Shown: one piece after another, positions 1-16,700 of the stretch
Position numbering within the stretch: the first letter of the stretch is position 1
Layout: every line of letters starts with the position of its first letter
DNA from: Botryllus schlosseri
Lineage: Eukaryota
Length of the DNA: 64,000 bases
NCBI GenBank assembly: GCA_051294905.1
Contig: CM119372.1
Location: 12,340,001 to 12,404,000 of the forward strand
Direction: 5' to 3'
The notes under the pieces: generated by a model
Seen by the model: only the letters and a program-made list of their open reading frames with translations
What the model was told of the DNA's origin: nothing
The model's database searches: none
Program-made: the position numbers and the translations under genes

Positions 1-3000
1 TCGATTTGAGGCAATGATGTCTAAACAGGAGTCCAGAGATCTAATCTTAAACGCTCGGAATTCTATAAAATTCTCGGATTACTCCGGGTTCTCTTCAAGC
101 TGAAAGTTTGCAACCGTAGGTGAGACTGTACCTGTCCGTCGCAATTTACTGGTTAACCCTATGACGTGCTACCACACTGACACTTTGCGCGAACAATTGG
201 ACATTGAACAATCTGTGATATTCTGTCGGGACAGCACTTGTTGTAATTGCTATGAAACGAAATCGCAGTATGGCCGAACTGTGATCGTTGTGTCATGAGT
301 TGCCTGAGAGTCGATATCGTGCGCGCATGAGATCGAATGGGCTCTCAAATTCTTTAGCTCTACCGCCACACTAAATCCAGTATAACATGTGACAGTCACA
401 TGCAAGTCTATTTATCCGAAGTGATTCCTATTCGCAGAGTATTTGCGTTACGCTTTGAAATAATTTCAGATCGGGTATAAAATGGGGTTGCTAACTCGAC
501 CTCCTATTCAAATAAGGTCACATTTTTCAAATCTAAATGCATACTCATAGAAAAATGGCCATCAATCGATCACTGGGCTAATTCGTAATGGCAAATCTCA
601 GCAAGTATTTATATTTTACTGGAGTACTCACGTAGGTTCTGTTTAGGTACAGAAATTAGTATACTCAGGTTTATTTATTAGACTGGTTTCATTTCGCATA
701 AGGTATAGTTTTGAAGGACTATCTCTTAAAAGAGCTCATTGAAAATTCATTTTAAAGCTTTGATAGCTGAAAGTTATTGGACTCGAGTAATGAAGTTCAG
801 GTCCGCGTAGGATAATAATCACGTGGGAAATAGCCGTAAATTGGTGTGATCGACTCAATATCTGAGTATCCATCCGTCGTATATGCAAGTAATTGAAGTG
901 AAGTTTCAACGTGTGGAAATCGCGCTGCTCGAAAATATCCGCAACATGCTATTCTCTTGCAGTTAACATGGAAAATTGTTCAAGCATCTACCCACTTTGA
1001 TCTAGAAATAGACATGCGATCAAAACATATTCTGATGTAGCTATTAGCGATGTAAGATTATACCTCAAGAATTGCATTGCGAGACAAACCGAAATTGCAT
1101 GGATTACTGGCAGACAATGCGCCGTACTAATCTACTGCCATCAAGGCCACGGTTGCGATTTGTGCAATGTTGTATTCACGCCTTCGGCATACTCGGCGTG
1201 CTTTGTCGCAGGGGAATGAGAAAGGCACTCTCTCGAATTCGAGAACGCATCCAGTGTAACCCGAACGTCCGTGCGTCACAATTTCTAAAAGAGAATACAA
1301 ATTGATTACTTTACGTCAAAGGAACGTATATTTGGACGTCGTCACGGCGGTTAGCCAACAAAAATACAGCTTCCTGCCGTTAAAAATATAGTAGCGGCGT
1401 AGTTGACCCATGTCAGCTTTAGACGCCCGCGGGCCGTAGATACTCGCTTGCAAGTAAACATTGGGTTATAGTGGGTTAAGGTACGTAGCGAAAAGCGTGC
1501 AATTATTTCTCTGTCTAAGTGAGGTGAATCCATAAATATCATTCCACAAAGGCGTGCACGGCGTCACAAAGAGAATCGAACGTGGAACTCGACTGATGTC
1601 TATGGGGGGTAATTGTGTGGGAACGGGCGATTTGGTGTCTAATATAGCGTACGTGATATTTTAAGATTCCCTATTATATAGTGTTTATTTTTGAGACAAA
1701 ATGCTGCGTTATGAAACCATAATTTCGCGCGATGCCGATGTTTAAAAGAATTCGGACGGTTCTCATGTTTTGCACATCGCGCAGTGCAAAGTCATGATAC
1801 CGTGTATTTTCAAATTCAAATTTAAAAGAACCAAACCCCGTTATTTGAGGAATACGTGGTTTAACCGTTTGTGCAACAGTTTTGCTGGTCATACTCAGCG
1901 CGGTATCTCGAGCTAGCTCTAGATATCCCTGGGAAATTGAGGATGCACATCTATAACCAGGGGCATAATATATATCCAGATACAGTCGTTTCAACACATC
2001 AACTTGGTATGTAACTCGTGCCGACACATGCCTATTATTTTTCTCTGCTTGCGCATATCTATATGCTTATTATGTTTTCGCATTTGGGGCACATACCACT
2101 GTCAACGCACTCTTTCATTTTTATTACTAATTGCTACAAAATACTTTCTTATGGTTGATTAATGGCATTCTCAGCTGAAGTAGCCCCTTGCTCTGAAACG
2201 GCAGTGGGAGTTGAAATGTGAACGTTGTGAATAAATTTGAATTAGCCTAGTTTATTACTGTAACTCATGCATCCACTCGGTACCGATTTAGAAGCCGATG
2301 CATTTATATATGCGCGGTTTATCAAAAAAGGCATAACACGTCATTGTAGACAGAACTGGTGCGAATGATCACGAAGTTACTCCATGTTCCCACCGACCGC
2401 GTATGACTCAAGCGCACTAGTGCTTCCGAAACGCAACAGCAACATTTATACGATCCCAAAAGCGGGACCTTTAGAAATATTCTAGAAGTGGCGGTGACGG
2501 CGGTAAATTCTCTTCGAAATTTTCGCAAATATCAAACAGTTCGTGTATGTGATCGAAACGATGTGCTGCACACTTTCGAACAAGCGAAAGGGATCCATGC
2601 GCCTTTGTAATCCTATCGCGGATTTTTCGTTTTGTGAACAGGATTTTTCGGTCTAATTTCCATCACTGCAACGCTAATGACGCTCTCCCCTTACGCAAGC
2701 ATCGCATTTGCCGAGTGACAACGTAAGCAACAGTGTGAATTACGTCCGTTCATTGTGGCTACATATAATCAATATTTTAACTTCAAGATTAGCAGACGAG
2801 CGTGTGCGGCTTTACGTTGCGACGCACGTCGTCACGTCTTGGACGGCGACGCATTGCCGCGACGCGCACTTTCAATCGGTAAAATTGATCCTCGTTAAAT
2901 ATAATAAAGTTTTCAGCCGCCGGTTTGAATAACTCTATATTTTCGATATATATCAATTGCATATGTCCGTTTGGGCAGCGTGACGCAATATCGGTCATTT

Positions 3001-6000
3001 TGCAGACGAAACTCCGGTTATAGAATAAAAGCGTCATTGGCTTTTTCGAATGTGAATAATTTAATACCAAGTGTGTGTCTTGGTTTTGCATTCCACGATC
3101 CCGAAAAAAAATCCAAAAGTAATCGACAATAACCAGTTGAAAACCAGGTGCGCCTGTTTTTGCGGCGAGGCACGGCTCCGTCTATTCACGGGCGATAACT
3201 CTCAACGCGATGGCAAATTAATTCACAGACAGCACGTCTGTTATTATTTGTTATCTCGTATACGGAGCCGACTTGCCTTTACGCGTTGTAGATATTCTCT
3301 CGCCTACAAAGAAGTACTTCGAGGCTAAATCCAGGAGATGAACCTTGAAATCATCCTCTGGATAATTTGACATTCCTACTAATTTTTCTGAACTTGGATT
3401 CGCGGGGCATAGTCAGTGACTGTATGGCCCCTGTGCAGAATTCAATCACCGAATTATGATGTCAAATATAAATTTCTAGTAGTGAACGTTAAACATATAA
3501 AACCCTACATAGTTACACAAATTTTAATAGCGTTATAGTTGTAGTAGTCAATCGGTTGTTTATGTTTCCAATGAATATTCAGAGTACACAATGGTCGATG
3601 CTGGAGCTGCAATCATGTATTTAGGATTTGACAGAATACTTCTCTTGCGGCTATTGCATATTTCGAATAAATATGTCACATGGTGCAAAGCCGTGAATGA
3701 TGAGATCAATGAATCGCCGGCATAAATAGCTATCACTGAAATCGAATGGCTTTGCCTATTCAGCTAAGAATCTGACAGTCCATTTATCAGCGGCAGTAAG
3801 CTGGATTGTGTTTGGTAAAAAATCCATCAATTAACCGCCGCGCTTCGAGTTATCTGCGGCTGAATTGGGATTGGCTTTTCACGATGCGAGAGTCCTCTAC
3901 TCCACTGTATTTTCTTGTCACGTGACGGAAAACGAAATTCAACCTTTTAGGTATACAGGAAGTAGAAATACGTTTAGAAAATGAAATCCTGTAAACACGA
4001 ACGAAAATTCTCTTTAATCATATATGCACTGTACATTACACAAGTAAATTCTATAAGGGGACCAATTTCAAATATACGATTTCATCTTTAAGCCTTAGTA
4101 AACTCGCGGATTGTGAGATGGAGTTGACAGTTTGGACTAAATATCTAGAACTAGATACTTATATACAATCGCATACAAATTGTATCACACGTTTGGAATT
4201 ACAGATTATTACGAAAGTAGAATTAGCAATTGGGAATTGAAACCGGGAGTATTAACCGCGATCGGCTTCATAACACTGGTTCTGAACCTGGGGTTTTCAC
4301 GCACCCCAGAGATTCGCTGGAGGTCAAGACACGAACCCGACTCATACAGCAGAAGTCAAAGTGATTTGCAGTAAATATCCATTATAATCCTTTTGTTTTG
4401 TCTGGAAATCGTGTTTTAATGTTTCTGTTCTTTTAACACTATCGTTGATACACAGATAATTTTGCGCACCCGCAGTGTTCTAACGTGATAGATCTCTGTT
4501 TTTGTGAATAGGCCAAAATTTGGGGTTCGTCGCCAGCTTGCAGTTTAGCGTTAGGATTCGCCTGATTAGTAAAGGTTAAAAAGCACTTGTATTATCAACG
4601 GGGCACGCAACGACAAATGCTTCGTGACTAAGTGCATTGTGCATGGTGTAATTCCGTTATTTTGTGTCCCCATTGGGCAGACCTGGGCAAAGTGCGGCCG
4701 CGGAGCTATTCTGAGCGGCCCGCGAAAAGTTACTTAGAATTAAAAATATAAAACCTACTTTTGAATGTTGATGTGTGGACTAAAACCACAGGCTCTATAA
4801 ACTGAACCGGAGATTCGTTTACTTTGCAGCCTGTTCAATAATATGTCGTATGCGTAATCCAGATTCAAAATAAAGCCAACGTAGCAAAAGGGTGCCGTGA
4901 CAATTAAAGTCACAAGTCACACTTTCCATTTAGTTTAGTTCAAACCTTCTTTGTTGCCATTGTCACATTACGCATTACACGGTCTTTGACCTTTTTTTAT
5001 TTTTATTCATAAAGTCAACCGACCACGATGTGGAAAAAATTTACCATTCTTTCAGGATTTTCCTCCGGTTTTGCAAGTCTGAAAATTTTGAAAAAGTGTC
5101 CTCTTTTCAGCTTTCCAAAATATGGTAACCCTAGTACAGTTTAATCTTCCATATCAAACGAAGTCACAAAACGTGCAGTAAGCTACCGGTATCCACTTTG
5201 TTTTATCAAACAGCGACAGTAAAAACCGAATTGACAACGGTGTGGGAGAGTCAATTCACCAAATACAAAACCGAACGACTCACTCTGCAATATCTAATGC
5301 GAAAAGTCGATTCGATATGCGTGCATAATAGCCTACATTCATACACATCACAATACCACTCATGATAACAATTCAAAATCGTTGCTGACACATTTGAATC
5401 ACAGCCTTTCAATCGCTAACAGATAGTTAGAAATCACAAGTTGCTTCAATATTCATTGTAATATGAAAAAAATATCCAACGGGCAAGCAAAAAAAGACAC
5501 TAAAGGACTGAATGTCTGCAAGTCTGTGTATGGTAAGCATTGATGGAGGTTACTTCTTGGCGACTGAGACTTTTTTCACTGTATAAGTGAGTATGTTCAA
5601 TCGTTCATTGATGAAACTATGTCCCTATTGTCCAACGGGACACAGTTCATCAGTCATTGTACCATTTGCTGACATTTTGATTAACAAGTTGAAAGTAAAT
5701 GGAATTATAGTTACACATTAGCCTAAATGCAGCATGGGTCGCGCGTGTCGCCTACATGAGAACAAAATGCACGGGCGGTGACAACGGGAAAATGCCTAGT
5801 CAACGAGCTACATCCCTAATTGCTGGATACCCGGGTTAATCAATCCACAGTATATCGTAAATCCAGATTTCAGCACTCAACTTTTTGGCCTCGACCCTAA
5901 GATTTTCATTCGCACAACATAGATCCCTTGGAAAGTAGACCGCGGGCTTCACGTACCTCAATTTAGGGATTTAGCGTTACAGAATTGTTTTGTCGCTTCA

Positions 6001-8424: not shown

Positions 8425-8930
8425 CTCTAGAACAAGGCTATTTCACCAAACTGCGCACTGCTCGGAAGTCAGCGACCAAGACAATAAGCTTGGTAGCATC
8501 CCAAACACATATTAATGTCTTAACAGAAAAACGTGGATAGGGGTTGAGTGTTTAAAATGTATCATGCTGTTTAACATTGCTTCGAATTATGACGGCAAAT
8601 TAATATTACGATTTGTTATTAATTAACCGTCACTTTACTTTTTGATTACTTTATACATCAACATATCCACTGGGCCTCATTTATGAACAATGTAATTCAC
8701 TGCGTTCAATTTAGAAATAAAATGAATAGATGGGAGAATATAACAAATATTTTTGACTTGGTCCGCCAACGTATTTTCAGATTCTCATTTGGCCCGCGGA
8801 AAAAAATAATTACCCACCCCTGCTATTGGAGAACCAATACCTACCAACTCCTTCTCGCTCAGGATCGAATGAAGTCTTTAAATCTAGCATGTCGAGCGAT
8901 TCTCTCTATCTGACGAGAAATGAAACACAG

Positions 8931-9433
8931 TGTAGCCGCAACCCGCAGATCGCGCCACAGGGTGGATTGAAATATCTGGCTGCTTATATTCCCTTTCGGC
9001 ACAGAGAAAAAGACTCGCTTTGTTGGTGCGTGTTTTCTATTAAAAATGAAATACAATAAGCATTGGCAAGTATGTACTAAGCTATCAAATACAAAGCATC
9101 TTACTTGACAATGTGTCTTCCGGGTTTTTTAGTTTATTTTATTTATAGATTTACTTTGACTGTAACAAGATATCAAAACAGTGAGACAATGAATCAATTA
9201 ACCTAACTAGCCCTATTCTAGCAATGCAATAAACCTAACTATTCCTATTCTATTAACTGAACTAATGCCAAAACGATCCTACCACTAACGCACGTGTACT
9301 AAACGGTGAATTACACCACGATACGTCAGACCTAGTTACCGCTGTGAGGTAACAATGACACTGAGTCCACTTCCTTGTTCGGCGGGAGTGTGAAGGAGCC
9401 ACAGCGACACCTTAGGGCCGTACGGCGGCTACA
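8931..9433 (-). repeat. 3' LTR of the BEL/Pao element
   Basis: 503-bp direct repeat of 13234-13736; no mismatch found by eye. Confidence 0.96.
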
Positions 9434-9681
9434 TCCTGGCCCCTTGGAAATTCAAAATTTGTTCCGAATTTGGAGATTTCCACACACACACTCTCACGCA
9501 GTCAGCAGGTGCTACCAAACGAAATGGTAATTATTTAACGAAATCAAAACTCAAGTTATTCTCTCTTATGTAAGAGGGCAAGCTTAGAAATACAACGGGT
9601 GTATTTTGAAAGTTTAGTCCACAGTGGCTGGTCTAGGAGCAACTGTGGATTGTTTGACAAAAAGACAAATTTAGAAGTGTA

Positions 9682-12600
9682 TCAGCAGAAAGGCCTCTCA
9701 AGGCGATGTCTGCAGGGATTCAACTTGGACGGTACATTCCACCATCGATACAGGTTGGACCCAGCTTTGATTTGGTTGAAAACGAATGTCTTGAAGGCGT
9801 TGCAGAAATTTGCAAGATACCACATTGCAGTTATACACATCCACCAGAGAAAGGAGAGGCTGATTGTAAATATCGGTTCTTTTGGAAAGTATTTGTCATT
9901 GTTGACCGTACAGTTTGAGTTCATTTCAGAGTAAGGGAAATCTTTCTTCCGTTGGAGACGAAACAGATCCTTGTCTTCTTCACAAGCCTTCGCTTGGTGA
10001 ATCACAGCTCGAACATCTCCTTGGATGCCGACGATATGTTTGTGGACACTGGATGAGACTTCAACCAGATCCTTTGTCAAATCTGGCCCCTGTAACAGAC
10101 CATCATTAAGTGAGATGTCATTATACAGTTCCATTGATTTTTCTGCAGATTCAAGAGACAGTTTATCATTCTGTGACAGTTCTTGTTTCTCGTTCTTCTT
10201 CGAGTCGACAAAATCCCGACACAGCTGATATAAGGATTTCGGCAAATTCGTTGCAGGCTTTGAGAAAAATACCTTTTTTGTTCCGACTTCCGCTTTGGCC
10301 GGGCAGTTTATCATCCAGCCTGCAAACGTTCTTGTTGCATAATAGTCATTTGGACCATGAATTACCTCCAGGGGCTTGTGAAGCCTTCTGTTTTCTTTTC
10401 CAATTAATAGTCCAACTTCGGATGCTAGTTTTGGGATACACAGGTCTTGGAATTCCGGAAATTGGTTGACATCTTCTTGTCTGGGAATGTCGACGTCCTC
10501 GACACCAATCCAGTCAGTTGATACTAATGGTGTAAGCGGAGCATATTCTGTGCCATAGAAGTCGGACAACTCAAGATTATCGAATATGTTACCTTTGTAA
10601 CCGGATAATCCTGCCAGAGTGCGAAGATCAAATTCTGTTTGACCACCTTGGAGGCAAAGTTCCTTTGCAAGATTTTCACTGATGAATGAAAGGTGACTTC
10701 CATTGTCGAAGAAAGCGTGTGTAGCAATATAGCAGTTTGTTCCTCGAATTCTGACGCGGACGGGTGCCACGTTAAGTAACACATTTTCTTCAGGTAATTT
10801 GGCGAATGCATTGAATTTCACAGGTCCTTGAGCCTTTGGAGCGTTTTCTTGGGCGACAGTTGAAGCCGCAGAATTTTGGACAACGGGTTCGCTCGCATTG
10901 TCAGAAGAGACTGGATTCACATGCAGGAGTGTTGTATGTTTTCCATCACAATGTTGATACTTGCATGGCTTTTCTCTAGTACAGTTGTCGGACCAGTGTC
11001 CGGGTTGCAAGCACGAGAAGCATAGCTTGTTATTTTTCACAAAATCTCTTCTGCCAGTAACGTCCATATCACGGAACACCTGGCACTGATTGAGGAAGTG
11101 TTTTTTCTTACATTTTATGCACGATGACCCACAGTCATCCTTGGTGCCTTTATTACCGGCACAAACAGAAGTTGCAAAGTTTGATTTTGTTTGCCTTACA
11201 ACAACTGGCTTATTGTTTGTACTTTGTTCACGGGGAGGGACATTTGACGCTTCACGTACCTTTTTACGCACGTAAGCCGACAGGTCACTCATTTTCACTT
11301 CGCACTGCAGTTCATGGAGGATATGGTCCATGACGCTAAGCCAGCCTGACCTCCATTGTGAGGGCATTCTGAGTGCGATTTTATCGATCGTCTCCAGCGA
11401 GACGGATTGGTAGTTAATACCTTTGAGAGTATTTACACAGGATATAAGATCGGCGGAAAGAATCGCCAAGCCATCTTGATCATGCAACTTTACTTGAGGA
11501 CCAGAGGATATTAAGTTTAAACAAGAAGGTCCGATTCTGAACTTTTGGCCATACATCTCTTGTAGCAGGTTCAGTGCTTTTCGGTAGCAGTCGTTTGCAT
11601 CAAGGTGTAAGCAGCTCTTGACGAGAGTATTTGCTGGTCCCTTGGTGTAACGCATCAAGTACACCAGTTTTTGTTTCTGATTTATAATTTTGTTTCCAAT
11701 TGTTATTTCAAAAATGTCCATGAAACTATTGAAGTCACTTGGATTACCAGAAAAGATTGGGGGTTCTAAGGGTGGCAAAAGGTTTGGTTGAGTTACTGGC
11801 GGGGCTATAGAATGCACAACGTTGGCAGACGAACATGAGTCATTGTTTGTGGAAGCCAAAATGGAACTAGGCACTACTTCTGGGCCAGATGGGCTTCTCA
11901 AATCTAAAATTGGTTTGTGATTCAAGGTAATGAATGGAGAAGTTGTAGCCACCATATTTGTTAGATTTGACATAATGGGATTATTTGACGAGACCGAATT
12001 AGGAGGTTGGCAATAGACGTTGGTGCCAGATAACACAGTATTAGGACTACTTACACTCGTACTGCTGACGTTCCTTGCACTCACACTATTGGCATTCATA
12101 GCACCCACACTGCGAATTGGTAAGGAACAATATGAACTTCCAAGGGGTGAGAAAATAGCCGACGTACCTGTTTCTGAGAGATTTGGAGTCATCGAAGGTT
12201 CTCGAAGTTGCTGCGGTTCTGGTTTTACCACTGGTGCCAGTGGAACGTTGGCGTTCTCGGATACTGTGACGGAGTTCGAGCTTGATATTGGTTGATGCAC
12301 AATTTGGGTGCTTTTAGAGCCGTTATATAGTCCCCGTTCAATCATAATTTCCTCGAATTGAGCTTCTGATTGTAGCTTTTCTCGCTCAGTTCTATCGTCA
12401 ATTTCTTGTAGGTTATTCTTCAGTCTTTGATTCAAAGACCTTCTGCCTTCGAGAGCCTTCAATCTATGCATTTCGAGTTTTCGTCGTAAACCCATTTGAC
12501 GCTTCCGATCTTCCTCTTCTCTACGTCTTAATTCCAATTGACGACTCTTTTCTTCTTCTTGACGTCTCATTTCTTCTTCTTGACGCCTCTTTTCTTCTTC

Positions 12601-13170
12601 CTCTTGACGTCTCTTTTCTTCTTCTTCTTGAAGTCGTAATTCCTGGAAAATCTGTTCCTCTTCAGATCTTATCTGATCTTCGAAGGCGTCATTTTCTTGT
12701 TGAAAGCGATGCTGGACGTGTTTTTTGTCCATTTCAGCCTTTTTGTCGCGGTGAACATCCCTCGAGTGTTGTAAACTGAGTATTTGAGAGTTACTCATAT
12801 AGCTTGATCCTGTTGCAGTGCTCGAGACAGACGATCGTGATTTCAGTGATTTGGCAAATACCGGTAGGGTTTTTGGCTTGTTTGAGCAGTGGCTCGATGA
12901 CAAGGACGGCCTACCTTTGGTCGGCAGGCTCCTTAGAGTCATAGAATGTGACCTCAGTAACTTTGATTTGTGAATAGTCGACACAGCTGACTTTGACTTT
13001 TTGTTTTCTCTTTGTTTGTCAGTGTTCGACATTCTTTGGATTTGTTCGAGGCCAAAAGAACCACTGCTTGTGCCGGCCTGGGCATTGTTTGATTTATCAT
13101 TACGTACCGGTACCGTAGTTTGCTCTTCAGTCTCCACTAGCAGCAAGTTTGAATTAGCTTCTTCAGCCAT
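9682..13170 (-). CDS. BEL/Pao Gag-aspartic protease polyprotein with truncated Pol relic tail (1162 aa)
   Basis: Basic/Ser-rich N-terminus, E/R coiled coil, Pao capsid-like motif PLEPPIFSGNPSDFNSFMDIFE (DUF1759-like), triple Cys-His knuckles (CIKCKKKHFLNQC; CFSCLQPGHWSDNC; CKYQHCDGKHTTLLH), protease motif AFFDNGSHLSFIS, then short RT/RNase H remnants. Confidence 0.93.
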   Translation of the reverse strand: MAEEANSNLLLVETEEQTTVPVRNDKSNNAQAGTSSGSFGLEQIQRMSNTDKQRENKKSKSAVSTIHKSKLLRSHSMTLRSLPTKGRPSLSSSHCSNKPKTLPVFAKSLKSRSSVSSTATGSSYMSNSQILSLQHSRDVHRDKKAEMDKKHVQHRFQQENDAFEDQIRSEEEQIFQELRLQEEEEKRRQEEEEKRRQEEEMRRQEEEKSRQLELRRREEEDRKRQMGLRRKLEMHRLKALEGRRSLNQRLKNNLQEIDDRTEREKLQSEAQFEEIMIERGLYNGSKSTQIVHQPISSSNSVTVSENANVPLAPVVKPEPQQLREPSMTPNLSETGTSAIFSPLGSSYCSLPIRSVGAMNANSVSARNVSSTSVSSPNTVLSGTNVYCQPPNSVSSNNPIMSNLTNMVATTSPFITLNHKPILDLRSPSGPEVVPSSILASTNNDSCSSANVVHSIAPPVTQPNLLPPLEPPIFSGNPSDFNSFMDIFEITIGNKIINQKQKLVYLMRYTKGPANTLVKSCLHLDANDCYRKALNLLQEMYGQKFRIGPSCLNLISSGPQVKLHDQDGLAILSADLISCVNTLKGINYQSVSLETIDKIALRMPSQWRSGWLSVMDHILHELQCEVKMSDLSAYVRKKVREASNVPPREQSTNNKPVVVRQTKSNFATSVCAGNKGTKDDCGSSCIKCKKKHFLNQCQVFRDMDVTGRRDFVKNNKLCFSCLQPGHWSDNCTREKPCKYQHCDGKHTTLLHVNPVSSDNASEPVVQNSAASTVAQENAPKAQGPVKFNAFAKLPEENVLLNVAPVRVRIRGTNCYIATHAFFDNGSHLSFISENLAKELCLQGGQTEFDLRTLAGLSGYKGNIFDNLELSDFYGTEYAPLTPLVSTDWIGVEDVDIPRQEDVNQFPEFQDLCIPKLASEVGLLIGKENRRLHKPLEVIHGPNDYYATRTFAGWMINCPAKAEVGTKKVFFSKPATNLPKSLYQLCRDFVDSKKNEKQELSQNDKLSLESAEKSMELYNDISLNDGLLQGPDLTKDLVEVSSSVHKHIVGIQGDVRAVIHQAKACEEDKDLFRLQRKKDFPYSEMNSNCTVNNDKYFPKEPIFTISLSFLWWMCITAMWYLANFCNAFKTFVFNQIKAGSNLYRWWNVPSKLNPCRHRLERPFC

Positions 13171-13233
13171 TTTGGTTTTCTTTGTTGATGAAGGTGTTCC
13201 AACGAACAGATTTGAATATTGTCAAAAAACTAA

Positions 13234-13736
13234 TGTAGCCGCAACCCGCAGATCGCGCCACAGGGTGGATTGAAATATCTGGCTGCTTATATTCCCTTTC
13301 GGCACAGAGAAAAAGACTCGCTTTGTTGGTGCGTGTTTTCTATTAAAAATGAAATACAATAAGCATTGGCAAGTATGTACTAAGCTATCAAATACAAAGC
13401 ATCTTACTTGACAATGTGTCTTCCGGGTTTTTTAGTTTATTTTATTTATAGATTTACTTTGACTGTAACAAGATATCAAAACAGTGAGACAATGAATCAA
13501 TTAACCTAACTAGCCCTATTCTAGCAATGCAATAAACCTAACTATTCCTATTCTATTAACTGAACTAATGCCAAAACGATCCTACCACTAACGCACGTGT
13601 ACTAAACGGTGAATTACACCACGATACGTCAGACCTAGTTACCGCTGTGAGGTAACAATGACACTGAGTCCACTTCCTTGTTCGGCGGGAGTGTGAAGGA
13701 GCCACAGCGACACCTTAGGGCCGTACGGCGGCTACA
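13234..13736 (-). repeat. 5' LTR of the BEL/Pao element
   Basis: 503-bp direct repeat of 8931-9433; ORF ATG lies 63 nt downstream on the minus strand. Confidence 0.96.
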
Positions 13737-16700
13737 CACAGTATGAAACGTCATTACGGCCACGAACAAACACTTAAGCAAGACTATATGCTGCAATATG
13801 TTTCGTTACAGTTTTGGTAGGCTACATTTCCCCATGCTATTTATTGTGGAGCAATGAATACCAATTTGACCCTCCAAACAAGCTTGTTCTTCTAGTTAAA
13901 TTTAAATCCACCAAATGGTAATATAATTGTATCAATGTATCAAGCAATTTCCTTTTTGTTACTCAATCAACCGATAGCTCTATATACGTAGACCATGGAT
14001 ACGGATACTAACTCGTGACTATTTTTTTAATTAACGAAATGTAGCGATATCATTTTCGCGTTGATTTCCCTGAATGATCGACTTGGTAGAAATCTGAGTT
14101 GTGTGCATAGTATACCAGACCCGCCACATACCGACTGCCACATTTACAGAAATATAAATTTAGACGTCCCTCAGCATTCGATAACACACTTCGGATCTTG
14201 TGGAAAAACGTAACTCATTGAAACGGAGAATATTTGGATATTGTATGGGTAGTATCATTTCGACTTTCCAATTTCGATAGCGAAGTGATACGTTCCACCG
14301 TTGCAACACCAATGGTTTATAAGTTTGAGTCTGACGCAGATCGACTCCTGATTCCCTAAGTATTGGAAGTTTATGTAGGCTAAGGCTCCTACTCACCATC
14401 CGATACGCGTTAGCGGTTTCTTACGAAAGCCTAGAACGAAAGTTGGTCTTGCTATGACTCAACTGCTCGGAATTCATACATAAAATTAATTTTATCCGCA
14501 TGGTGTAAAACGACCAAGTTGTCGGCACCATGAATATTGAACAACAAAAATACCACGAATATACTTCTAAACATTAAATAATATTTTTTCGACCATCCTC
14601 GGGTTACCATTACATAGCAAAGTTAATTAATCGATTTATTGTAATAATTATGTAAAATATCTGCGTAGTATATGTACTTTACTACATATAGCGTGCAGTA
14701 TGAATTATCGCTTATGCTGTTCCCGCTGGCGTGACCCGAGTCAATAATAAGACAGTGATTAGGTCAAGACAACGACATTTCGCATTCCTGGATACAGTCC
14801 AACTCCCAATTCTTAAATCCTAATTAGCATGTCTGATTAGGTGCTGTGAACATAAATAGATTCGTTCCATACAAGGAGCGAGAAAGTTGACAGCAGCAAA
14901 TTAATGACCGGCGACAACTCAATGTGACGTAGCCTAGTGACGGATGGTTTACTATACCTTATGAATGTAGTCGTCATGATATTCGGCGTAATGCAGTAAC
15001 GAACTGCGCTGTCGTCCAAAAGCATGTATATGTAGCAGAATCGTGCCGTATTTACAAAGCCTTGCCGGTCTTGCGAATGCTGGGGGCTAGATTCGCCACG
15101 TAGTCGTCAACAGCTCAACATCGCCTCATGCGACTACCTAAATTAGCATAGCAACTGTAAGTGGCAGGTCACAGAGCTCGACTCAGCAGTATGAAGCCTT
15201 GCGTGATACTACGACTAGTCAAGTTTATAGTAATATGGGGGCATTCGAATAAATATATATATGAGAGAAATGGAGATCCTCTCACTAAAAACGTTTTATA
15301 GGCTTGCTGTTTTAGACTACATTGTCAGCGACTCCCCGTGTCTTTTTGGAGGAAACAAATTTCATATTAACTTTTCAAATAACAGTTATAATGACCATGA
15401 CAGAATTTGCCACGCCCGTGTATTGGTAGGCGGTAACGGGTCACCGACCTTAAAATGTTCAAATATGGAAATCTGTTAATTAATGCATATCTATTCCGTA
15501 TAAGATTACTAACAAATTAATTGTACCGAGGTAAATGACAGCTCGCCATATCGCTGTCACGGAAGCCGCAATGAACTGCGGCAGGTCATGCGAACAAGCA
15601 ATCATGAGACTTATTATATTTGTAAATATCGAGCAACCGGCGCATTTGCCCATCATTGTTATTATTACTCGATTCTTCAGGCCGATTTTTAAGCCTAATA
15701 AATGTCAATTTAGTGTTAACTTAATGAGGCTACATTAACGTAAGATTATGCGAGCATACAATACACTTGCTTGCATGGTCATTGGTCACTATAAATCGAT
15801 TGAGTTTCGTGTCGATGAACGTTACCATTGCATCATCGAAAGTAGGATTGAAATGATTTCAAACGTCAAAATATTCGTGCCGTTTGCACGATTAATGATA
15901 AATCATTTTTAGTGAATTAGGACCAGAATCTATCAGGTATCAACTGTATATCCTAGTTGACTGAAACATTCTCTACCATAGTGCCGATTTCGGGCAACGG
16001 GCGTAAATGTGTTTATCTATCGACTGACAAAAGGCATTCAAATCTGCTGTGATATATGATACAACATTTGCGGTTTCACAAATTAACAATCAATCAAATA
16101 TGAAGGACAAATCGGAAACAAGCGATCGGGAATTCTTCTTTGAATTCATCAAACCAATTTATGTGGATTGTTTATAAGCGCTGTTCCACGTGATAATTAT
16201 TTGTAGTCTCCTGAGCATTTCCAGTTGTTTAAGAAGTTTCAGGAGGCGAGGGGCGCTCCTAGAAAATAGGTACCATGTCCATCAAATCGCTGATAAATGT
16301 AATTCCCATGATATCTGATTTAATTGGTCATGCAGGTCGAAAAGCATTGACATTCAGAATTCTTGATGAAGATGTTCATTTAGATATCAGAAATTGTAGA
16401 AATATTGCATGCATAGTTTCTCACTGGTAACACTCTTTAAAATAGCATATAGCAATAGACCCGTACGGGTGCTATATTTTTCAGTCCTTGCCATTCCTTG
16501 ATAAACACTGAAGGACTATTTCAAAGTTACATCATGTTATCATCACCCACGCCTATATGAGTGAGATGCATGTGACACCCGGAACGGGTGACTGGCATGA
16601 AAATTCGGTGTTCTGTCAAGTACAACCCCGGCGATGTCAATATACTGGATGACTCATATGTGTAGCAAATGTGTTGTGAATTCCGCAAAGAGCACTGGGC

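Follow-up and report, generated by a model that had tools for sequence, protein, structure and literature searches.

A young BEL/Pao short form of Botryllus schlosseri that retains Gag and protease and has apparently spread with the enzymes of a full-length sister element

Analysis of a 64-kb stretch of the Botryllus schlosseri genome (the window) reveals an internally deleted LTR retrotransposon that keeps Gag and protease (PR) in one long open reading frame. The subfamily to which it belongs, referred to below as the short form, arose once, through three internal deletions, and has since given rise to at least 13 insertions in the genome. It has apparently spread by borrowing the enzymes of a full-length sister, C10L, with which it also swaps sequence. 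Probably, the copy in the window inserted very recently and belongs to a non-autonomous BEL/Pao subfamily of about 4.8 kb that is mobilised in trans by a helper of the C10L type, with template switching between the two forms; the ends shared by both forms point to trans-mobilisation, to co-packaging and to the identity of the helper. A preliminary description of the window had made the underlying observations, which are confirmed, and had proposed that the element replicates in trans in its deleted state, a proposal supported by the shared deletion junctions, the distinct target-site duplications, the presence of C10L and the divergence of the pol relics.

Organization and coding capacity of the window copy

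The element occupies positions 8931–13736 (4806 bp) on the minus strand and thus reads from right to left. Its two LTRs, the 5' one at 13234–13736 (read as 13736..13234) and the 3' one at 8931–9433, have TG..CA ends with a 9-nt terminal inverted repeat and are identical at 503 of 503 positions, the identity stopping exactly at both borders. The perfect target-site duplication CACAG is found on both flanks (8926–8930, plus strand, and 13737–13741). LTRs that end in TG..CA, here of 503 bp, and a short duplication, here of 5 bp, are as expected of BEL/Pao elements. The 5' untranslated region of 63 nt (13171–13233) is almost unvarying across 12 copies; no TGG-type primer binding site was seen adjoining the 5' LTR of the window copy, nor a canonical tRNA-type site at this place in the short or the long form. 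At the other end, a polypurine tract of 12 nt, 10 of them purines (9434–9445), adjoins the 3' LTR and is identical in all 12 aligned copies, long element included. It opens, in window coordinates, the 3' untranslated region (9434–9681), the last 75 nt of which are common to the long element. The mismatch-free LTRs, the duplication and the polypurine tract had all been noticed in the preliminary description.

A single open reading frame of 1162 codons (13170..9682, minus strand) is the only stop-free frame of at least 180 residues anywhere in the window. It had been described as unbroken and as encoding an intact Gag-protease; both statements hold, but the frame contains more than Gag and protease, its last 147 codons being in-frame relics of reverse transcriptase (RT) and RNase H. 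The N-terminal 470 residues of Gag (11761–13170; dN/dS 0.32) consist of Ser-rich stretches and of a coiled-coil-like Glu/Lys/Arg repeat whose length differs in frame between copies. They are followed by the capsid-like domain of BEL/Pao Gag (DUF1759, residues 473–594, positions 11389–11754), recognized by Pfam with 35.2 bits against a cut-off of 25.4 (E 1.5e-8), and by a nucleocapsid-like region (10921–11121) containing three zinc-binding motifs of the types CCHC, CCHC and CCHH (Cys/His residues 684/687/691/696, 717/720/725/730 and 736/741/745/750). The Pfam match of the latter region to zf-CCHC is weak; in the alignment with relatives, all 12 Cys and His residues are invariant in nine of nine sequences. 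Gag thus combines DUF1759 with Cys/His zinc motifs, as is characteristic of BEL/Pao elements.

Alignment, structure modelling and fold comparison concur in predicting a retropepsin, with an aspartic protease fold like that of family A2 and a D-S/T/N-G motif, at approximately residues 795–958 (10297–10788). The predicted catalytic Asp 822 lies in the sequence DNGS and is invariant in 24 of 24 sequences; the following position is N or T, both normal in this clade, and the VGLLIG motif is kept. The structure model of the domain (pLDDT 87.6) retrieved exclusively retroviral or Ddi1 proteases among its best 50 Foldseek matches. With VIA-align it superposes on Ddi1 of yeast with Z 9.8 and rmsd 3.4 over 116 aligned residues, and on the M-PMV protease with Z 8.6 and rmsd 2.7 over 101. 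The capsid-like domain, the three zinc knuckles and the DNGS site reported initially are therefore all borne out.

The remainder of the frame consists of two relics. The first (residues 1016–1077, 9940–10126) is a segment of the RT fingers, 60% identical to residues 1103–1164 of the long element; the second (residues 1078–1162, 9682–9939) covers the RNase H end plus the pre-integrase linker and is 49% identical to residues 1436–1519. The three deletions, with junctions at 10126/10127, at approximately 9909–9940 and, within the 3' untranslated region, at approximately 9621–9636, removed, respectively, the N-terminal part of RT, a segment that begins with the RT palm and takes in most of RNase H, and the integrase. 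Indeed, no match to RVT_1, rve or any other pol family was found by Pfam in the window frame at E values up to 1, and alignment to C10L shows that the FYVDD motif and the entire integrase are deleted, in agreement with the earlier finding of neither a YxDD core nor a DDE integrase. The Pol order PR-RT-RH-IN with the Pao-specific families PF05380 and PF18701 is present in C10L and missing from the window copy because these parts have been deleted; the latter is therefore a derivative of BEL/Pao rather than a complete member. It lacks RT, RNase H and integrase, yet retains LTRs and polypurine tract, as non-autonomous elements do.

The short-form family and its full-length sister

All 26 candidate loci in the assembly were scored against the 3.8-kb interior of the element. 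At nine further loci the interior aligns end to end, with 91–94% identity, and at a tenth the match covers positions 40–3800; the remaining short-form loci are two split or interrupted copies and one 3' fragment. All 11 aligned short copies, spread over seven contigs, agree in all three deletion junctions and in the stop codon, and six of them, window copy included, share both start and stop columns of the 1162-residue frame. Each of the nine simple complete elements, counting the long one, has its own perfect 5-bp duplication, and all nine differ (eight different duplications for the eight simple short copies); solo LTRs have their own duplication in the four cases examined. The search for the same junctions at different target sites, proposed as a check in the preliminary description, thus gave a positive result.

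Six short copies and the long element have LTR pairs free of mismatches; three others show 2, 5 or 6. Gene conversion is possible in principle as a source of identical LTRs, and unlikely across seven elements. Frames of 1031–1187 residues are retained in 8 of the 11 short copies, and the full ATG-to-stop frame is intact in six. Two young copies with identical LTRs (C11b and C14) carry N-terminal frameshifts and have frames of 1102 and 1031 residues; a complete Gag N-terminus may be needless in cis, or the changes may have arisen during the last round of copying. Transcription was sought in one raw RNA run, where the 75 matching reads, 71 of them partial and most in the LTR, give no firm evidence.

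The full-length sister, C10L (on contig C10), measures 7446 bp, has LTRs identical at 512 of 512 positions and contains one Gag-PR-RT-RH-IN frame of 2075 residues, with neither stop nor shift between gag and pol. It was placed in BEL/Pao by homologue lists and by its Pfam matches (DUF1759, RVT_1, Peptidase_A17, Integrase_H2C2, rve, DUF5641), and its FYVDD motif is intact. LTR ends, 5' untranslated region and polypurine tract are common to C10L and the short form, with near identity in the 5' untranslated region and in the 75 nt that precede the 3' LTR, and the Gag of the window copy is 87% identical in amino acids to that of the long form. The genome therefore holds an autonomous partner whose LTR ends and priming regions match those of the short form, such as is found with trans-mobilised elements; a Pol-competent element of this kind was among the things to be looked for according to the preliminary description. 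C10L is the only intact helper candidate in the assembly. Elsewhere in the genome, the only close independent match to its pol is a fragment on C11 that is truncated at the 5' end; there is also a segmental duplicate of C10L itself, and all further pol matches are at or below 80%.

Recombination, selection and alternative explanations

Over the LTR, gag and protease, the long element falls within the diversity of the short form (about 5% divergence). The short-long distance is 0.046 against a short-short distance of 0.052 at element positions 504–3400, and 0.028 against 0.035 in the LTR, whereas in the block 3611–4228 it reaches 0.261 against 0.067. As had been claimed, divergence from C10L is far greater in the pol relics (26%) than in the LTRs (2.8%). 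In windows of 200 columns, the long element shows 0–1 differences from different short copies in different windows. Moreover, 57% of the informative site pairs fail the four-gamete test, and incompatibility between neighbouring sites is lower than in all of 2000 permutations. As judged from the mosaic blocks in these alignments, the two forms have recombined with each other.

The analysis of dN/dS that had been suggested for gag and protease gave values of 0.17–0.20 over capsid, nucleocapsid and protease in four disjoint pairs of short copies (Fisher p 8e-10 to 3e-20). Segregating sites are distributed over the three codon positions as 34/16/80 in capsid-nucleocapsid (p 1e-11) and 28/21/54 in protease (p 1.5e-4), and as 20/20/23, with no codon-position bias, in relic 2 (p 0.87). 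At the level of codon substitutions, these data show purifying selection on gag and protease among short copies (dN/dS about 0.2) and none on the RNase H relic. Since gag and protease recombine with the long form, the selection could have acted in long elements, and the signal may be partly inherited from them.

We propose that the short-form LTR would drive a genomic RNA encoding the Gag-protease polyprotein, and that this RNA would enter particles also holding the Gag-Pol of a sister of the C10L type, whose RT, RNase H and integrase would copy it and insert the copy. The short RNA would be usable by these enzymes because LTR ends, 5' untranslated region and polypurine tract are common to both forms. 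With short and long RNAs co-packaged, template switching would become possible; it would keep LTR, gag and protease exchangeable, and the deletion-bearing 3' block would evolve separately in each form. The constraint on Gag and protease might arise because translation of its own frame aids the packaging of the short RNA, a cis effect resembling the one reported for the mouse IAP I-delta-1 element, or because these segments are re-imported from the helper.

Taken to its end, the second option would make the short form a trans-mobilised element whose own frame is irrelevant, Gag-protease being re-imported from full-length elements under selection. Mosaicism is pervasive in precisely the gag-protease region, and the two young copies with N-terminal frameshifts inserted all the same. 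On the other hand, at least 13 short loci stand against two independent long ones, so that a short RNA would mostly be co-packaged with others of its kind; six full frames, and eight of at least 1031 residues, persist among the 11 copies despite a mean divergence of 5% between them; and the RNase H relic is unconstrained within the very same copies. We therefore regard this explanation as unlikely.

A division of labour between the two forms appears more doubtful still. Gag and Pol of BEL/Pao elements lie in one frame, in C10L a single uninterrupted one, and would therefore be made 1:1; the short form would supply surplus Gag-protease, and the pair would be a two-part element rather than host and parasite. 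The restriction of constraint to Gag and protease in the short form fits this proposal, as does the exchange of the common LTR, gag and protease between the forms. Related full-length elements are, however, found in other animals, where the one candidate for a short partner, cluster P0005, was rejected as consisting of gene calls of mixed length. Furthermore, other single-ORF elements adjust their Gag:Pol ratio by splicing or degradation. The obligate version, in which the long form needs the Gag-protease excess and the short form the enzymes, is equally doubtful; if true, template switching would keep the common parts co-adapted, and the deletion block, 26% diverged, would record a long coexistence.

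A role of the Gag-protease frame in restricting the full-length element, whether as a dominant-negative product or after co-option by the host, is very improbable. Short copies do exceed long ones in number, and with 87% identity in Gag co-assembly is conceivable. Domesticated Gag restriction factors, of the Fv1 or Ty1 p22 type, are single host loci or non-mobile truncated Gags, whereas the frame studied here belongs to a multi-copy, LTR-flanked, transposing family with distinct duplications rather than to a single conserved host locus, and neither truncation nor an altered capsid sets its full-length Gag apart from that of the helper. Finally, a one-off deletion, assembly artefact or LTR collapse at the locus of the window copy has a negligible probability. 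Nothing was found in its favour; the locus-specific flank-to-LTR junction is bridged by no contig among those listed. It is refuted by the copies at many loci with distinct duplications and the same junctions (11 of 11 aligned copies, seven contigs). Moreover, contigs of an independent study of the same organism bridge junctions 2 and 3 with 0–1 differences, and junction 1 is bridged by a contig whose run carries the label of a second organism; the single copy with a near-identical parent that would have spoken for such an event is contradicted by the genome, as the preliminary description had expected.

Relation to known helper-dependent elements

No database protein more than 42% identical to the window frame was found, the nearest named proteins being from an ascidian (42%), a sea urchin (26%) and fishes (about 25%). 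Full-length BEL/Pao elements (Belpaoviridae) of marine deuterostomes have the same Gag layout, in which an N-terminus with Ser-rich and coiled-coil stretches is followed by DUF1759 and three zinc motifs, and their protease likewise carries D-N/T-G-S and VGLLIG; unlike them, the window element has no RT core, RNase H or integrase, and it is C10L that carries the full Pao-type pol.

In plants and among mouse IAPs, LTR elements that depend on helpers and retain a working gag are already well documented. The internally deleted IAP I-delta-1 has one long fused ORF and obtains Gag and Pol in trans from full-length relatives; it has more new insertions than the full-length form, and its fused protein is reported to be cis-acting (PMC6466679, in excerpt, citing Saito et al. 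2008). The window element is likewise internally deleted and keeps one long frame. The IAP, however, is a vertebrate endogenous retrovirus in which a 1.9-kb deletion takes part of gag and part of pol, whereas the present BEL/Pao element, known from its sequence, has three deletions and a complete Gag and protease. Plant TR-GAG elements are non-autonomous LTR retrotransposons of less than 4 kb, Copia- or Gypsy-related, that encode Gag as their sole ORF and are apparently still active (PMC4350172, in excerpt). The window element works like them and is not a member of this group as there outlined: it measures 4806 bp, retains protease and in-frame pol relics, and has its relatives among animals. 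In non-autonomous copies of Arabidopsis Athila, a plant Ty3/Gypsy element, intact ORFs persist under purifying selection, and new lineages arise when existing ones recombine (excerpt of PMC2410132); here, one short and one long form with common LTRs recombine, and a non-recombining deletion block dates their split. Within the portions of the literature searched, PMC3286476 included, no helper-dependent, gag-keeping BEL/Pao element of animals is described. Measured against these portions, what is new is an animal BEL/Pao example of the kind known from TR-GAG, Athila and IAP I-delta-1.

The family offers a clean natural case, with many very young copies and one intact helper, in which the constrained Gag-protease against the unconstrained RNase H relic provides an internal control for selection and the non-recombining block dates the separation of the two forms. 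For annotation, it is a warning that an open frame of 1162 residues between identical LTRs does not make an autonomous element. The family could serve to study why Gag is still translated from non-autonomous retroelements, and by what means the Gag:Pol ratio is set in elements with a single ORF.

Structure of the window element and of its open reading frame

Since its long open frame is on the minus strand, the window element is read from 13736 to 8931. It is delimited by two identical LTRs of 503 bp each (8931–9433 and 13234–13736) with TG...CA termini, whose identity ends exactly at both borders, and the pentamer CACAG is found on either side. A purine-rich tract adjoins the 3' LTR. The sole long open frame extends from 13170 to 9682 and encodes 1162 residues; no second stop-free frame of at least 180 residues occurs anywhere in the 64-kb window. 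It is preceded by a 5' UTR of 63 nt (13171–13233) that is nearly invariant across 12 copies. In neither the short nor the long form of the element was a TGG-type primer binding site seen after the 5' LTR, and no tRNA genes were found in the 64-kb window. On the left flank, a short repeat of very high copy number (8782–8822) reaches a summed contig depth of 2469, 544 and 25 in three runs, compared with 5–50 in the adjacent bin; the window element is inserted beside or inside another repeat. The flank-LTR junction at 8930/8931 is bridged by no contig among those listed.

Pfam searches with the window ORF identified the BEL/Pao Gag domain DUF1759 (residues 473–594, E 1.5e-8), together with a zinc knuckle of weak score; up to E 1, no families of reverse transcriptase (RT), RNase H or integrase were matched. 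In the alignment of the window ORF with eight relatives, the 12 Cys/His residues of the three zinc motifs are invariant, as are Asp 822 of the DNGS sequence and the VGLLIG motif. The Asp of the catalytic motif is conserved in 24/24 sequences and is followed by Asn or Thr as the norm in this clade, so that DNGS is not a defect. The model of residues 775–965 (pLDDT 87.6) retrieves only retropepsins among the top 50 Foldseek matches, and VIA-align aligns it over 116 residues with yeast Ddi1 (Z 9.8, rmsd 3.4) and over 101 residues with M-PMV protease (Z 8.6, rmsd 2.7). The ORF ends in 147 codons of in-frame pol relics, namely a remnant of the RT fingers (relic 1, residues 1016–1077) and one of the RNase H end (relic 2, residues 1074–1153), respectively 60% and 49% identical to the corresponding parts of the full-length sister described below. 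Thus the preliminary description, which listed LTRs without mismatch within a CACAG duplication, an unbroken 1162-codon ORF, a capsid-like domain with three zinc motifs, a DNGS protease site and a polypurine tract, and neither RT core nor integrase, stands on all these points, the relics at the end of the ORF being an addition. The Glu/Lys/Arg-rich repeat of the Gag N-terminus (approximately 12437–12637) differs in length among copies by in-frame steps of 18–66 nt.

Copies of the short form and a full-length sister

The assembly searched comprises 495 Mb in 219 contigs. With the LTR as query, 40 matches of 89–100% identity were scored among 89 candidates. The 3.8-kb interior gave 26 candidates, all scored: nine other loci match over positions 1–3800 with 91–94% identity, a tenth matches from 40 to 3800, three more short-form loci match piecemeal (one copy carrying a deletion, one that is interrupted and one 3' fragment), and a long element is matched by the first 3107 bases. 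Eight simple short copies of 4691–4887 bp, located on contigs C2, C3 (two), C4, C8, C11 (two) and C14, are each flanked by a perfect 5-bp duplication that differs from copy to copy, and their LTR pairs carry no mismatch in six cases, two in one and five in another. The short form also occurs on C8 with its 5' LTR truncated, and twice on C13, once with an interruption of about 9 kb and once reduced to a 3' fragment. On C10 it forms a tandem array (L038, G000:C10:562200-572100) organized as LTR-interior-LTR-interior-LTR within a single outer duplication (ATATG), with two LTRs of 527 bp, a third of 505 bp and an identical frameshift in both interiors. Solo LTRs have their own duplication in all four examined. 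The short form has therefore inserted repeatedly and recently.

Another C10 region, in which members of the family cluster (L040–L043, G000:C10:14619001-14659000), contains a short copy split, immediately ahead of its ATG, by 5.8 kb of foreign DNA, an intact long element and a tandem segmental duplication. This long element, C10L, is 7446 bp in length, with LTRs identical over 512/512 positions and its own duplication, and encodes in a single ORF 2075 residues that match DUF1759, RVT_1, Peptidase_A17, Integrase_H2C2, rve and DUF5641 in Pfam and include FYVDD. This sister with complete pol shares its ends with the short form. Three segments of C10L are missing from 11/11 aligned short copies: 291 nt of the N-terminal part of RT (deletion 1), about 828 nt that extend from the RT palm over most of RNase H (deletion 2) and about 1515 nt covering the integrase (deletion 3). 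In addition, their stop codon falls in one common alignment column in 11/11 copies, from which it follows that the short form originated once and then multiplied; the deletions are of single origin.

The segmental duplication adjoining C10L (10,025 bp, in tandem, 99.97–99.99% identical) copies the final 2.6 kb of the element, and may be genuine or may have arisen in assembly. It contains one of the two close matches to the C10L pol, a partial copy of 99.96% identity; the other is a 5'-truncated fragment on C11, and all remaining matches are at or below 80%. A parent with pol nearer to the short-form relics was sought in the assembly and none was found, relic matches outside the short copies all being at or below 80%. 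With regard to annotation, the PF05380 match of C10L, named "Pao retrotransposon peptidase" (L043:1615-7842, minus strand, residues 1312–1475), falls within the RT/RNase H region, downstream of RVT_1, whereas the domain of retropepsin fold lies upstream of RT (approximately residues 795–958 of the window ORF) and is matched by no Pfam family; the name of PF05380 is therefore misleading.

Parts of the stretch are present in 20 runs from 9 studies. The junctions of deletions 2 and 3 are spanned, with 0–1 differences, by contigs that an independent study obtained from the same organism. Run X13, which bears a second organism label, covers 30/30 bins at 90–99% identity and bridges the junction of deletion 1; one of its contigs, at 10126, continues from a short-like RT relic into nine letters equal to the undeleted long-form sequence. 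This thin evidence suggests that a second organism harbours the short form as well as an undeleted relative whose pol is short-like. No RNA-labelled run is among the listed holders of the stretch; 75 reads of the raw RNA run X24 were aligned, 71 of them matching in part only. Four X24 reads, which derive from a variant LTR, have an unaligned poly-T end at 9316. Polyadenylation of minus-strand transcripts about 118 nt into the LTR would be consistent with this, but four reads do not suffice to position a poly(A) site. The nearest database proteins are 35–42% identical, those with a named source being from an ascidian, sea urchin and fishes, from which an animal host follows. One of the database proteins, P0005 (1033 residues, ending before RT), was considered as a Gag-protease-only relative elsewhere and rejected: of its 29 cluster members, the 15 that were listed span 211–1361 residues, and such mixed lengths indicate fragmentary gene calls rather than a common architecture.

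Constraint on Gag and protease and mosaic history of the two forms

ORFs of 1031–1187 residues are kept in 8/11 short copies, the span from common ATG to common stop is intact in 6/11, and indels in the intact copies are mostly in-frame. Over 45 short-short pairs, dN/dS (Nei-Gojobori) is 0.32 for the Gag N-terminus, 0.18 from capsid to nucleocapsid, 0.23 for the protease, 0.40 for relic 1 and 0.52 for relic 2. Four disjoint short pairs give 0.17–0.20 from capsid through protease (Fisher p 8e-10 to 3e-20) and 0.47–0.59 for the relics (p 0.04 to 0.22). Segregating sites at codon positions 1/2/3 number 49/59/94 in the Gag N-terminus (p 3e-4), 34/16/80 from capsid to nucleocapsid (p 1e-11), 28/21/54 in the protease (p 1.5e-4), 5/6/15 in relic 1 (p 0.03) and 20/20/23 in relic 2 (p 0.87). 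Taken together, dN/dS and codon-position counts lead to the conclusion that Gag and protease are constrained at the protein level; the RNase H relic is unconstrained and acts as an internal control. Two young short copies carry N-terminal frameshifts: either the last copying round can proceed with an incomplete Gag N-terminus, or the frameshifts arose during that round.

Pairwise and sliding-window distances were used in place of a phylogenetic tree, since recombination makes a single tree meaningless. Mean short-long and short-short distances are 0.046 and 0.052 over the 5' UTR, gag and protease (element positions 504–3400), 0.028 and 0.035 in the LTR, and 0.017 for both in the 75 nt directly before the 3' LTR. 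In the deletion-bearing block (element positions 3611–4228) they are 0.261 (range 0.248–0.284) and 0.067. Synonymous sites, too, are more diverged between the forms in the relics (0.35–0.57) than in gag and protease (0.09–0.19), so that relaxed constraint alone is insufficient as an explanation. In 200-column alignment windows, the long element shows 0–1 differences to short copies, the partner changing from one alignment window to another, and the grouping of the short copies shifts as well. Moreover, 12,538 of 21,945 informative site pairs fail the four-gamete test, and incompatible pairs make up 22% of those within 100 nt, compared with 57% after permutation (0/2000 permutations as low). 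The short and long forms have thus recombined. The simplest reading is that their RNAs have long been co-packaged, with template switching wherever the two are collinear; the deletion-bearing block does not recombine and therefore records the age of the split between them. The window copy also has a private block (11840–12039) that differs from each of the 11 other copies at 29–39 positions per 200 columns and has a dN/dS of 0.33–0.42, which implies that some source lineages are absent from the assembly.

Several expectations of the preliminary description are answered by these comparisons. Its pol relics are indeed far more diverged than the LTRs, copies with the same deletion junctions at other sites and a Pol-competent element with common ends were looked for and found, and dN/dS on gag and protease, once computed, indicated purifying selection. 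The common deletions, the many insertions and the pol-complete sister support its proposal that the deleted form itself has been replicating in trans, as opposed to being a one-off deletion.

Proposed replication and relation to known elements

Transcription would be driven by the LTR and followed by translation of Gag-protease; the short RNA would be packaged with the Gag-Pol of the sister, whose enzymes would carry out its reverse transcription and integration. One possibility is that Gag-protease is kept through a cis advantage of translating its own Gag, by analogy with the mouse IAP I-delta-1 element, for which such an advantage has been reported (PMC6466679). Another is that gag and protease segments are imported from the helper, and a third that extra Gag truly contributes to the particles of a single-ORF element.

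The portions of the literature consulted describe several comparable systems: TR-GAG elements, plant non-autonomous LTR elements with a retained Gag ORF (PMC4350172), non-autonomous Athila lineages with purifying selection on their ORFs and inter-lineage recombination (PMC2410132), and co-evolving autonomous/non-autonomous pairs in wheat (PMC9744471, PMC11302176). Recombination at reverse transcription has been reviewed (PMC6894440), and a survey in mosquitoes covers non-coding non-autonomous LTR elements whose masters are not known (PMC3286476). As far as these portions go, IAP I-delta-1 is the nearest animal analogue of the short form (PMC6466679), while the window element differs from TR-GAG elements in size, content and host, and from a complete BEL/Pao element in missing the defining pol. 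No description of a Gag-protease-only BEL/Pao family was found in the portions consulted of the main texts of openly accessible journals. The short form is best classified as a non-autonomous subfamily derived from a BEL/Pao family, and its value lies in clean internal controls and in a gene flow between helper and dependant that can be measured.
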